From the NCBI RefSeq assembly GCF_013122565.1, contig NZ_CP053258.1: a stretch of DNA of 64,000 nt. One strand, given 5' to 3'. Positions 5,189 through 9,765 of the stretch are shown here, in pieces. The notes under the pieces are model-generated. The model saw nothing but the letters and a program-made list of their open reading frames with translations. It was not told the DNA's origin and ran no database searches. The position numbers and the translations under genes were made by a program. Within the stretch, counting starts at the first letter, position 1; each line of letters begins with the position of its first letter. This DNA is from Escherichia coli (lineage in GTDB: Bacteria > Pseudomonadota > Gammaproteobacteria > Enterobacterales > Enterobacteriaceae).

Positions 5189-5593
5189 ATGGATCAGGTC
5201 GTTGTTTTTCAAAAGATGTTTGAGCAAGTGAGAAAAGACCAAAACTTTTCCTGGTTTTATTCAGAATTAAAACATCACCGTATTGCACATTACATTTATT
5301 ATCTGGCTACGGATAACATCAGAATTATTACTCACGATGACACGGTTTTGTTATTAAGAGGAACCAGGAACCTGTTAAAAGTTAGTACGACCAAGAATCC
5401 TGCCAAAATAAAAGAGGCCGCATTGCTTCATATTTGCGGAAAATCTACATTTCGGGAATACTGTTCAACACTGGCAGGCGCGGGCGTTTTCCGGTGGGTT
5501 ACTGATGTTAATCATAACAAACGCAGTTACTACGCCATTGATAATACGCTTTTATATATTGAAGATGTAGAAAATAATAAACCATTAATCTAG
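5189..5593 (+). CDS. ycgX: Uncharacterized protein YcgX (DUF1398 family)
   Basis: 134-aa ORF MDQVVVFQKMFEQVRKDQNFSWFYSELKHHRIAHYIYYLATDNIRIITHDD... Confidence 0.85.
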   Translation: MDQVVVFQKMFEQVRKDQNFSWFYSELKHHRIAHYIYYLATDNIRIITHDDTVLLLRGTRNLLKVSTTKNPAKIKEAALLHICGKSTFREYCSTLAGAGVFRWVTDVNHNKRSYYAIDNTLLYIEDVENNKPLI

Positions 5594-5804
5594 CTAAAGT
5601 TGGAAGCTTAAGAAATGCTTCATAATTCAGTAAGGCATTAGCATAATGGAACTAAAAGTGCAGAGACTATTCCTATAGATCTTATACTGCCTTTTTATTG
5701 CCATCCATAGATGTTCAGTAGACCAATACTATAAAATTGATATTGAAATGTGCTCCCTTGCTTATTGATACATTATTTTATACGGTTAGTTTTCCTCTAA
5801 AAAC

Positions 5805-5829
5805 AACGGGCGTGCTATACGCCTGTTTC
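5805..5829 (-). terminator. Hairpin aacgggcgtgctatacgcctgtttc, a 23/25-identical copy of the icd terminator hairpin, with no obvious upstream gene on its strand
   Basis: Compare 7097-7121; on the minus strand the hairpin is followed by a U-rich tract. Confidence 0.35.
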
Positions 5830-5972
5830 AAGGCTTAACTCATATGAATTTTTCTTTATTTTTCATCACGTTATAATTTTTAACCAGCAACGAATTATCC
5901 TTCACTATAAAGTTCAATAGTTGAGACCTTATCCTCATGTCATGCGTATATTCATCATAATGATCCTTAGAC

Positions 5973-5998
5973 AAAAAAAGCCAACCATGATGGTTGGC
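5973..5998 (-). terminator. Orphan intrinsic terminator-like hairpin (8-bp stem gccaacca/tggttggc) followed by a U7 run on the minus strand
   Basis: Plus strand reads aaaaaaa-gccaaccatgatggttggc; no annotated minus-strand gene upstream of it. Confidence 0.45.
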
Positions 5999-6220
5999 AA
6001 AGTGGCACAAAGTAGCATAAAGGCTATGCTTTAATTACAGGAGGTTCAGACATTTGAATGTATATCGTTTTATCTAAACAGAACTAAAACGAAGTGAATG
6101 ATTTCATTTTTTCACTAAATCTCATTTTGTTTAATCTCTGTTGAGATTCCTTGTTTTAAATTTTGCTTTATATAAACAATAGCTTTATTTTTTAAATTGA
6201 TTTTTAGGTAATATAGAAAA

Positions 6221-6475
6221 ATGCAAAATCAAGGAATGAATATCCAAAGCAAACTATACGCATATTTAAATAAATATGACACTCGTCTTACAGAAGAAAA
6301 AATTGCGATTGAGAAAGCCATTAGAGAGTTACATTTTAGCAGCGAGCATGTTGATAACAAGAAAATAATACTGAAGTTACTATCATTTTTATCATATACA
6401 GATGATGTTGTCGAAAAAGACATTATCAGAAATGCATTGGAAGTGGTTCTTCTTTTTACTTCCGATGATATTTAA
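6221..6475 (+). CDS. AriR/YmgB-family small protein, paralog of ariR
   Basis: 84-aa ORF; C-terminal half VDNKKIILKLLSFLSYTDDVVEKDIIRNALEVVLLFTSDDI aligns with Ari[42 protein letters not shown]; weak Shine-Dalgarno. Confidence 0.55.
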   Translation: MQNQGMNIQSKLYAYLNKYDTRLTEEKIAIEKAIRELHFSSEHVDNKKIILKLLSFLSYTDDVVEKDIIRNALEVVLLFTSDDI

Positions 6476-6717
6476 TTGAATTCATTAATTTTATTATCAT
6501 AATTATTTTCCGGACACTACATTTTTTACTTATGTTTAATAATAACCACTGCGAATGAGGGACGCACAGGTATATTTTTCTCACACCTGTGATGTAAAAA
6601 CACGATAAAATCCAAATAAAGAATAAAATTTGCGACCCCACCAGATGGATTGCATCACACATTATTATTCAAAATATTTATCAACATCATTAATAGCCGA
6701 AGGATAAGACATAACAA

Positions 6718-7041
6718 ATGAAGTGGATAGTAATTGACACGGTAATTCAACCTACATGCGGTATATCTTTTTCAGCCATATGGGGTGATATGAAAATGAT
6801 CGTCTGGTATCAATCTACTATATTTCTCCCTCCTGGCAGTATATTTAAACCGGTTAAATCTGGTATTATCTTTAAGGATAAAGAATACCCTATTACTATT
6901 TATAACATCGCACCATTCAACAAGGATTTATGGAGTTTACTCAAAAGCAGTCAAGAGTGTCCTCCAGGAGAAAGCAAAATAACAAATAAATGTTTTCATA
7001 ATAGTTGCATTATAAAAATATGCCCATATGGGCTCAAGTAA
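6718..7041 (+). CDS. iraM: Anti-adaptor protein IraM (stabilizes RpoS by inhibiting RssB)
   Basis: 107-aa [36 protein letters not shown]...ICPYGLK; size and sequence match IraM (YcgW). Confidence 0.85.
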
Positions 7042-7092
7042 AGGGTTTCATATAAATATGCTCGATATGCTATTAATAATACCTACATAAAT

Positions 7093-7121
7093 AAAAAAAC
7101 GGGCGTGTTATACGCCCGTTT
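7093..7121 (-). terminator. icd rho-independent terminator (9-bp perfect stem aaacgggcg/cgcccgttt followed by U-run on the minus strand)
   Basis: Located 23 nt downstream of the icd stop codon at 7144-7146. Confidence 0.7.
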
Positions 7122-7143
7122 CAATATTTAAAACATGGAGAGA

Positions 7144-8394
7144 TTACATGTTTTCGATGATCGCGTCACCAAACTCTGAACATTTGAGCAGCTTAGCGCC
7201 TTCCATCAGACGTTCGAAGTCATAAGTTACGGTCTTCGCGTTGATTGCGCCTTCCATACCTTTAACAATCAGGTCTGCGGCTTCAGTCCAGCCCATATGG
7301 CGTAACATCATCTCTGCGGAGAGAATAATAGAGCCTGGGTTAACTTTGTCCTGACCGGCATATTTCGGCGCAGTACCGTGGGTGGCTTCAAACAGGGCGC
7401 ATTCGTCACCGATGTTTGCGCCAGGGGCGATACCAATACCACCAACCTGCGCTGCCAGGGCGTCAGAAATGTAGTCACCGTTCAGGTTCATACAGGCGAT
7501 AACGTCGTATTCAGCCGGACGTAGCAGGATCTGTTGCAGGAACGCATCAGCGATCACGTCTTTAATGACGATCTCTTTGCCGGTGTTCGGGTTTTTAACT
7601 TTCAGCCACGGGCCGCCGTCGATCAGTTCACCGCCAAACTCTTCACGCGCCAGCTGGTAGCCCCAGTCTTTAAACGCGCCTTCGGTGAACTTCATGATGT
7701 TACCTTTGTGCACCAGGGTCACAGAGTCACGATCGTTAGCAATTGCGTATTCGATCGCTGCACGAACCAGACGTTTGGTGCCTTCTTCCGAACACGGCTT
7801 AATACCGATACCGCAATGTTCCGGGAAACGAATTTTCTTCACGCCCATCTCTTCACGCAGGAATTTAATCACTTTCTCGGCGTCGGCAGAGTCAGCTTTC
7901 CATTCGATACCCGCATAAATGTCTTCCGAGTTTTCACGGAAGATAACCATATCGGTCAGTTCAGGGTGTTTAACCGGGCTTGGAGTGCCCTGATAGTAAC
8001 GTACCGGACGCAGGCAGATGTAGAGATCCAGTTCCTGACGCAGGGCAACGTTCAGAGAGCGAATACCGCCACCTACTGGAGTGGTCAGCGGGCCTTTAAT
8101 GGCAACGCGATATTCACGAATCAGATCAAGGGTTTCAGCAGGCAGCCAGACATCCTGACCATAAACCTGTGTGGATTTTTCACCGGTGTAAATTTCCATC
8201 CAGGAGATTTTACGCTCGCCTTTATAGGCTTTCTCGACTGCAGCGTCGACCACTTTCAGCATGGCTGGGGTTACATCTACACCGATTCCATCACCTTCAA
8301 TGTAAGGGATAATCGGATTTTCAGGAACGTTGAGTTTGCCGTTTTGCAGGGTGATCTTCTTGCCTTGTGCCGGAACAACTACTTTACTTTCCAT
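7144..8394 (-). CDS. icd: Isocitrate dehydrogenase (NADP), intact
   Basis: 416-aa [49 protein letters not shown]...[13 protein letters not shown]; full length with the native C-terminus. Confidence 0.97.
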
Positions 8395-8980: not shown

Positions 8981-9430
8981 ATGGATACTACCGAAGAACG
9001 CAATGGAACATATTTCTACAGAGGACACCCGAACCTGTCCAAAATAGAACTACTCAACGTCATATTCCTTGAAGAATTCTGTAAGGAATTGGGGATTGAT
9101 TCGGTATCAGGTGCAGCAATCTTATCTGGTCAACCTTGGCTGGGTACAAGAGCGAAGCCGGAAGGGGCAACCCTGGGAACAAGTGTTGTCTCAAAGTATG
9201 CGCGTATACTGATGAGAGATGCACGCATGCCTTTTGGTATTTCTGTTCATACAACAGTGGGTGTAAGGATGCAGAAATCTAATAAGCTTGCTGCAATTAT
9301 CGCTCGTTGGGTCCCGTGGATTGGTTGGGCTTCACTGTCGATGAGTCTTTACAGGATTTCGACTCGTACCCAGGAAAAATACAATCTGATTGCCAAACCT
9401 CAAGACCGTATTAAGTGGACTTCCTTCTAA
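8981..9430 (+). CDS. Hypothetical protein (149 aa), unknown function, with a hydrophobic C-proximal segment; first gene of a two-gene overlapping module
   Basis: ORF MDTTEERNGTYFYRGHPNLSKIELLNVIFLEEFCKELG...LAAIIARWVPWIGWASLSMSLY...; its stop overlaps the start of the next ORF (TAATG); no family recognised. Confidence 0.6.
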   Translation: MDTTEERNGTYFYRGHPNLSKIELLNVIFLEEFCKELGIDSVSGAAILSGQPWLGTRAKPEGATLGTSVVSKYARILMRDARMPFGISVHTTVGVRMQKSNKLAAIIARWVPWIGWASLSMSLYRISTRTQEKYNLIAKPQDRIKWTSF

Positions 9431-9765
9431 TGGCGACAACAATCACAGACGAAGTTTTAGCACTGTTCCGTGATGAGATTCCAGGTTATCAGGATGATCA
9501 CGGGAAGGAAATTCCGTTAGAACTGGACTCTGATTTGTTCGACTATCCACGAGATGATTTAGAGGACGCTATACGGAAATACAAAGAGAGGTTTGGGATT
9601 AACCTGGATAATCTGGAATGGTCTTTGTACCTTCCGTGGGAGTCTGCACCATTGCTTCAACGATGGTTCAAGCTCAAGCGGGAAGAGGTAGAAACAACAC
9701 GTTTACCGTTAACTGTACGGATGTTTGCAGAATCAGCAGAAGCGGGAAAATGGCTGTATCAGTAG
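9430..9765 (+). CDS. Hypothetical small acidic protein (about 111 aa); possible immunity or antitoxin-like partner of the upstream ORF
   Basis: ORF track 9415-9765; likely start at ATG 9430 overlapping the upstream stop; sequence MATTITDEVLALFRDEIPGYQDDHGKEIPLELDSDLFDYPRDDLEDAIRKYKERFGINL... is rich in Asp/Glu. Confidence 0.6.
   Translation: MATTITDEVLALFRDEIPGYQDDHGKEIPLELDSDLFDYPRDDLEDAIRKYKERFGINLDNLEWSLYLPWESAPLLQRWFKLKREEVETTRLPLTVRMFAESAEAGKWLYQ

Follow-up and report, generated by a model that had tools for sequence, protein, structure and literature searches.

ORF84, a rare AriR/YmgB-family gene upstream of iraM in Escherichia coli and its probable deletion from most strains

In this work, we analyzed an open reading frame of 84 codons, ORF84, in a 64,000-nucleotide stretch of Escherichia coli DNA (contig NZ_CP053258.1) that is referred to below as the window. 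The frame was taken from the ORF list, runs on the plus strand from an ATG to a TAA (6221..6475, stop included in the span) and lies where the initial annotation had placed it, between ycgX and iraM and 4.3 kb from ariR. It is nearly certain that ORF84 is a real coding gene of the AriR family. Taken as a whole, the results are best explained by a maintained AriR-like gene that would be driven by PhoP together with iraM, whose product would act as a connector, and which would have been deleted in most E. coli; we consider this account probable. The initial annotation was confirmed in its observation and partly supported in its interpretation, and the present analysis adds to it the rarity of the gene, its two apparently ancient alleles, the selective constraint acting on it, a deletion scar in K-12-like genomes and its PhoP-box context.

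Family membership, relatives and distribution

The locus was recognized from its neighbor genes as the E. coli region ymgC-ariR-ymgA-ycgZ / bluF-bluR-ycgX ... iraM-icd. ORF84 is flanked on its 5' side by ycgX (5189-5593, Pfam DUF1398), and its downstream neighbor is iraM (6718..7041, plus strand), encoding the RssB anti-adaptor, which was identified with NCBIfam NF007393 (169.9 bits; cut-off, 121) and bears the same name in homologous annotated loci. The true ariR of the window is found on the minus strand at 1661-1927. The ORF84 protein has a mass of 9.8 kDa and is acidic, with a pI of 5.3. It had been suggested that the gene might be unannotated, which does not hold, as the exact protein is present in RefSeq and GenBank (WP_171459484.1 / QJU24514.1). 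The RefSeq entry WP_171459484.1 is named "biofilm development regulator YmgB/AriR family protein", and PGAP annotates an ORF84 orthologue in 29/29 complete carrier genomes. The alternative wording, that it is little-studied, is fair because a full-text literature search found no paper dealing with ORF84.

The likeness to AriR is far beyond chance. When ORF84 was checked against the profile of the AriR/YmgB family, Pfam PF10798 (YmgB), it scored 57.8 bits, well above the cut-off of 22.3 (E 9.9e-16), with a match that spans residues 26-83 of the protein and positions 2-59 of the 59 in the profile. In addition, phmmer aligned residues 23-84 with the YmgB crystal structure 2OXL (E 8.8e-11). The similarity is therefore not confined to the C-terminal 40 residues, as had been described at first. 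Over the full length, ORF84 and the AriR of the window are 33% identical. Its 84 aa and the predicted fold fit the size of these proteins, about 80-95 aa with a single YmgB-type helical domain. No match to ORF84 was obtained with the NCBIfam models, nor with the YcgZ model (NF040640) among them.

A single-chain AlphaFold2 model of ORF84, built on a family alignment of 47 sequences, had a mean pLDDT of 84.3 and comprised helices at residues 5-18, 24-39, 46-59 and 63-78. Comparison of this model with the PDB by Foldseek gave 2OXL as the only significant match, with a target-normalised TM score of 0.93 and an rmsd of 1.1 Å over 60 columns; in this crystal structure, YmgB is a head-to-head homodimer (PMC10704370). 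The nearly invariant residues of the family, as seen in the 47-sequence alignment, are all kept by ORF84 (E26, N46, K47, I50, L53, L57, D62, D67, R70, L73, E74, T80, D82 and D83). Among them, R70 aligns with R74 of AriR, which is required for SpoT binding, the R74G substitution in YmgB abolishing this binding (PMC10704370).

A survey of 5,426 complete E. coli genomes revealed two alleles of ORF84: allele A (84 aa, ~94% nucleotide identity to the window) in 10 of them, and allele B (86 aa, 75% amino-acid identity) in 19. Carriers, among which are the strains ET201, LHM10-1 and EC42405, make up ~0.5% of the complete E. coli genomes, and the gene always lies between ycgX and iraM. All members of the ORF84 protein clusters for which an organism is given are assigned to E. 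coli. A HMMER search of 1.84 billion representative proteins returned a single full-length cluster of the ORF84 subfamily, the next relatives being at most 45% identical, and a neighbour-joining tree placed ORF84 alone on a long branch, apart from the AriR orthologues. A search of the GTDB species representatives with an ORF84 peptide pattern found none. Besides, a tblastn search with ORF84 through 50,697 phage and 72,556 plasmid records found nothing, so that a phage or plasmid origin is unsupported.

A scan of species representatives anchored on BluR gave loci from Citrobacter, Klebsiella, Cedecea, Superficieibacter and Silvania, with no Escherichia species among them. The ycgZ-ymgA-ariR / bluF / bluR module is conserved in these genera, and none of ycgX, ORF84 and iraM follows bluR in the loci examined. 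A recent duplication of E. coli ariR was considered and rejected, since ORF84 is equidistant from the AriR of all genera (35-45% identity) and forms its own branch. As judged from these sequence comparisons, ORF84 is an old and separate AriR/YmgB paralogue within an AT-rich ycgX-ORF84-iraM block. It is not an AriR orthologue, in agreement with its first description as an additional paralogue of the family adjoining iraM.

Selection, haplotypes and the deletion in K-12-like genomes

Purifying selection on ORF84 is clear, with dN/dS values of 0.05-0.15. Between the window and the other A alleles we counted 8 synonymous and 2 nonsynonymous changes (dS 0.18, dN 0.01, dN/dS 0.05; binomial P 7e-5 under neutrality), so constraint acted on the lineage leading to the window's own allele; the intergenic DNA of the same patch diverges by ~5% in this comparison. 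Between the A and B alleles, dS was 0.79 and dN 0.12 (dN/dS 0.15, P 4e-7). The dN/dS of iraM in the same comparisons was 0.21-0.27, ORF84 being constrained at least as strongly. The initial annotation had reasoned that a frame interrupted by frameshifts or stops in related genomes would speak against the gene. The frame is under purifying selection and is therefore conserved overall, although one frameshift and one early stop occur among its alleles. In wlxctx60, a frameshift from A7 to A8 at nt 146 splits the coding sequence, and in XJ5.2 codon 4 has changed from CAA to TAA, PGAP restarting the coding sequence at Met6, an alternative in-frame start located at 6236 (plus strand).

The comparison of the A and B haplotypes gave dS values of 0.5-0.8 for ycgX, ORF84 and iraM, whereas the adjacent bluR had a dS of 0.06 (window vs EC42405). 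With so deep a divergence next to a near-identical gene, both haplotypes are therefore old and linked, and the iraM locus would hold either a linked polymorphism of ancient date or a block acquired by introgression. In strains with the B haplotype, iraM is followed by trkG and not by icd, and in EC42405 IS elements are found there too.

Regarding the translation signals, the initial annotation rightly noted that ORF84 lacks a strong Shine-Dalgarno sequence: in allele A the best match, AGGU, lies 11 nt 5' of the ATG and is both weak and badly spaced, with a duplex energy of -3.8 kcal/mol, to be compared with -5.5 for iraM and -7.0 kcal/mol for ycgX. Allele B has GGGAG 6 nt 5' of an ATG located two codons further upstream. 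The initiation region of ORF84 is A/U-rich and lightly structured, with a minimum free energy of -7.6 kcal/mol over 80 nt, similar to that of iraM (-6.8).

That ORF84 might be a chance open frame in AT-rich intergenic DNA is scarcely conceivable. The surrounding region is indeed AT-rich (27-33% G+C), and six-frame lists do contain stop-free frames as long as this one, but the Pfam E-value of 1e-15, the match to 2OXL, the confident predicted fold and the excess of synonymous changes all oppose chance, and this reading is already refuted. We also regard as quite improbable that ORF84 is a functionless relic, now neutral in the source strain and intact only as decay has not yet struck. The gene is clearly dispensable, as more than 99% of the complete E. 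coli genomes (~99.5%) are without it; its Shine-Dalgarno is weak, the frameshift of wlxctx60 and the codon-4 stop of XJ5.2 affect one carrier each, protein databases contain truncated versions, and within clades the changes, very few in number, are mostly nonsynonymous (dN/dS 0.5-1.0). Against decay stand the 8 synonymous vs 2 nonsynonymous changes of the window allele, which place constraint on its own lineage (P 7e-5), and the retention of every near-invariant residue of the family. We favor the reading of ORF84 as a selectively maintained gene, carried by a minority of strains.

How the majority came to be without it is indicated by a scar. According to a four-haplotype alignment and the junction sequences, a segment of ~420 bp (6260..6695) is absent from K-12-like E. 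coli, and the missing segment is bounded by an imperfect direct repeat, CATATTTAAATA (6260-6271) and CATCATTAATAG (6684-6695). K-12-like genomes retain the whole upstream region of ORF84, its ATG and its first 11 codons, after which their sequence resumes 28 nt ahead of the iraM ATG, the deletion joining the first 11 ORF84 codons to the iraM ribosome-binding site. The same junction was found in 7/7 sampled genomes (MG1655, TOE3 and five more spanning the identity range), and a K-12 query spanning the junction had a coverage of at least 80% in at least 3,884 of the 5,426 genomes. It is very probable that the order promoter-ORF84-iraM is ancestral and that ORF84 was lost by one deletion in the lineage that led to K-12 and to most other E. 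coli. This polarity is read from the scar, as the bluR loci examined came from outside Escherichia. Deletion is preferred over an insertion in the minority because an inserted fragment would have had to supply all the rest of a full-length family member, in the reading frame of 11 codons already in place.

What remains of ORF84 in MG1655 (NC_000913.3) is an unannotated fossil frame of 22 codons, MQNQEINILMNHIKYRGIRHNK, which starts at 1,212,068 on the minus strand and is homologous to positions 6221-6253 of the window joined to 6690-6720. Because its TGA overlaps the ATG of iraM (ATGA), translational coupling between the fossil frame and iraM is possible in ordinary E. coli. The frame is intact in 7/7 sampled genomes, which over 66 nt constitutes weak evidence for selection.

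The upstream region and its relation to iraM

A PhoP-box-like direct repeat, TGTTTA-atctc-TGTTGA (TGTTTAatctcTGTTGA), is located at 6128..6144 on the plus strand, 77 nt 5' of the ORF84 ATG. It is the single match to KGTTTA-N5-KGTTKA on both strands of the 64-kb window, where 0.05 matches are expected by chance, it scores 11/12 against the PhoP box (T/G)GTTTA-N5-(T/G)GTTTA, and it is correctly oriented for ORF84. The Shigella shf promoter, for which PhoP gave an EMSA shift and a DNase I footprint, is listed with the same pair of half-sites (PMC5775216). The box is kept in the A and B haplotypes, while the K-12-like version is weaker (9/12), its second half-site being CATTGA. A candidate -10 hexamer, TAAATT, can be read 12 nt 3' of the box (6157..6162, plus strand). 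The A and B haplotypes are identical at 35/40 positions over 6120-6159, which form a conserved island, and then at 21/60 in the following 60 nt.

The spacer between ORF84 and iraM (6476..6717, plus strand; 242 nt) has no such island, the identity between A and B being ~60-65% throughout, and a terminator scan of its plus strand predicted no intrinsic terminator. An RNA element is unsupported, as Rfam gave no match at threshold over 5400-7200 and LHM10-1 does not conserve a hairpin present at 6566-6592. Neither the 627 nt 5' of ORF84 nor the 242-nt spacer contains the BluR operator motif GTACA/TGTAC (PMC3509220), which was found three times in the ycgZ promoter used as a control; BluR control of ORF84 was accordingly rejected at the level of sequence motifs.

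In K-12, iraM is induced ~20-fold through PhoQ/PhoP (PMC5740661), a dependence also published elsewhere (PMC10948607), and in a Shigella phoPQ mutant ycgW is down 11-fold (PMC5775216). The distance from the fossil ATG to the iraM ATG in K-12 is only 65 nt; this gap leaves little room for a promoter together with its PhoP site, so that the simplest position for the PhoP-dependent promoter of K-12 is in the stretch homologous to the upstream region of ORF84. In this way, we infer a link between the PhoP-like box and the known K-12 iraM promoter. The conserved box, the induction of iraM by PhoP, the terminator-free spacer and the missing BluR motif suggest a PhoP-activated ORF84-iraM transcript, and we give PhoP control of ORF84 combined with co-transcription with iraM slightly less than an even chance. 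Its locus, the lack of a BluR motif and the PhoP-box-like site also suggest that ORF84 is regulated differently from ariR.

It is tempting to speculate further, although we regard it as doubtful, that the PhoP-dependent "iraM promoter" of K-12 may be that of a lost ORF84-iraM operon, of which the leader would be the scar, and that in carriers PhoQ/PhoP would deploy both products. If ORF84 were indeed the ancestral PhoP-linked partner of iraM, rare strains would reveal the low-Mg2+/acid wiring of E. coli as it was before the deletion, and the K-12 iraM leader would hold a fossil frame with a possible effect on iraM translation. Carriers of such an operon would link Mg2+/acid sensing to Rcs or ppGpp signalling plus RpoS stability.

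Other elements were found in the spacer between ycgX and ORF84. A promoter scan detected a sigma-70 promoter-like sequence just past ycgX, TTCATA-17-CATAAT (5619..5647, plus strand). The same pair of hexamers is listed as an RpoD "constitutive promoter" in the iraM/ycgX spacer of K-12, which is also flagged as an H-NS site (PMC3946193). This promoter-like site may be an additional source of rightward transcription. The gene of the 14-aa small protein YmgK (5990..6034, plus strand; translation MVGKVAQSSIKAML) is intact and forms an island conserved between haplotypes A and B; the product of its K-12 orthologue has been detected by tagging (PMC6001520). At the position of ymgL (5646-5678), a stop interrupts the frame behind codon 10 in the window and behind codon 12 in LHM10-1. 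Two hairpins resembling intrinsic terminators are present on the minus strand of the spacer (5998-5980 and 5823-5809), one of which overlaps the start of ymgK, with no annotated minus-strand gene upstream of them. In total, 5 terminator-like sites were found in 5500-7150, vs 0.5 expected.

Proposed role, known systems and the wider locus

In our reading, ORF84 is an accessory gene, intact and maintained by selection, which encodes a small cytoplasmic protein of the AriR/YmgB family with four predicted helices; we propose that it would be transcribed from a promoter with the PhoP box at 6128-6144, most likely jointly with iraM. The protein would work like AriR, that is, not as an enzyme but as a protein-protein "connector" acting on an RcsC-like or SpoT-like signalling protein. 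Low Mg2+, acid or an osmotic upshift would then, via PhoQ/PhoP, bring about the production of an RpoS stabiliser (IraM) and of an AriR-type modulator together. The reasons for proposing a protein-binding connector made with IraM are the same predicted fold, the acidity (pI 5.3) and the SpoT-contact arginine, which is kept. YmgB/AriR activates the Rcs phosphorelay without the need of RcsF or of the RcsC periplasmic domain, reportedly via the cytoplasmic domain of RcsC, and its binding to SpoT and its effects on acid resistance and biofilm have been published. That ORF84 acts as a connector on Rcs or SpoT is a tentative proposal, its targets being extrapolated from a paralogue of just 33% identity. 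The role in acid resistance or biofilm that the initial annotation had in mind would likewise be an extrapolation from AriR.

The evidence on transcription may also be read in terms of a functional but stand-alone gene, with its own PhoP-independent promoter and with iraM transcribed from a separate promoter in the 242-nt spacer, a reading that we consider rather unlikely. The length of the spacer, considerable for an intercistronic gap in an operon, speaks for it, and so do two elements within the spacer, a weak promoter-like sequence detected by the promoter scan, TTGAAT-16-CATAAT (6476-6503), which could drive iraM separately, and a PhoP-like repeat scoring 10/12 (~6522-6538), as well as the constitutive RpoD promoter reported further upstream in K-12. 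However, the island conserved between A and B lies at 6120-6159 and has no counterpart in the spacer, no terminator is predicted 3' of ORF84, and K-12-like genomes have lost nearly the whole spacer while iraM is still PhoP-inducible. A different mode of action, namely that of a DNA-binding, Hha-like transcriptional regulator, was first suggested for YmgB, and its transfer to ORF84 seems very unlikely to us. Lee et al., in the 2007 paper on 2OXL, are said to have described YmgB as structurally similar to Hha, and the predicted fold of ORF84 is that of YmgB; yet later work ascribes the effects of YmgB to its action on RcsC and to direct SpoT binding, the acidity of ORF84 disfavours DNA binding, and no DNA-binding domain family matched its sequence. 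A connector produced together with IraM is the reading that we prefer on both counts.

Of the known systems, AriR/YmgB is the closest. Both proteins match PF10798, have nearly equal sizes (84 aa for ORF84 and 88 aa for AriR) and contain the motifs NKxIIL and D(I/V)IRxxLE(I/V)V..T.DD together with the SpoT-binding arginine (R74 in AriR, R70 in ORF84), and the predicted fold of ORF84 superimposes on 2OXL within 1.1 Å. Both are acidic, AT-rich and encoded in one 7-kb neighborhood of stress regulators. ORF84 differs from AriR by its low identity (33%) and its separate long branch in the tree. It lies at another locus next to iraM, on the strand opposite to that of ariR, whereas ariR belongs to the BluR-repressed ycgZ-ymgA-ariR-ymgC operon by bluF/bluR. 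The BluR motif, present three times in the ycgZ promoter, is missing upstream of ORF84, which has a PhoP-box-like site instead. Moreover, conservation of ariR extends beyond E. coli to Citrobacter, Klebsiella and Cedecea, whereas ORF84 is restricted to ~0.5% of E. coli and absent from the other genera examined.

YcgZ (NF040640), encoded in the same operon as ariR, is also a small helical protein that regulates by protein contact, with a weak similarity to PF10798 (25.8 bits). ORF84 scores far higher with the YmgB model (57.8 bits) and is not matched by the YcgZ model. A likeness of another kind exists to IraM and to SafA, a connector acting on PhoQ, which are small, AT-rich, look horizontally acquired and connect two-component systems to RpoS. 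The setting of ORF84 is similar, directly upstream of iraM and behind a PhoP-box-like site. In contrast, it has no sequence or fold relationship with either of them, and PhoP control of ORF84 is a prediction drawn from sequence.

AriR/YmgB and IraM are small connectors that feed the Rcs, ppGpp and RpoS stress networks. To our knowledge, all the work on them has been carried out in K-12, a strain without ORF84. ORF84 is no novel type of system but an accessory paralogue of a known family, automatically annotated yet unstudied. Its practical value is modest, as a candidate accessory regulator of stress or biofilm and as a clean natural presence/absence polymorphism for experiments.

With regard to the wider locus, the G+C content of the block 5600-7200 is 27-35%, a range typical of acquired DNA to which H-NS binds. 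The housekeeping genes from rluE to hflD are ~97.7% identical to those of typical E. coli and 99.6% identical to those of strain ET201, and the icd site of the window is without the e14 prophage. The interval between icd and rluE contains a two-gene accessory insert (8981-9765, plus strand) encoding an STM2901-family protein and a DUF1493 protein; it is absent from the K-12-like TOE3, where rluE directly follows icd, and present in LHM10-1.
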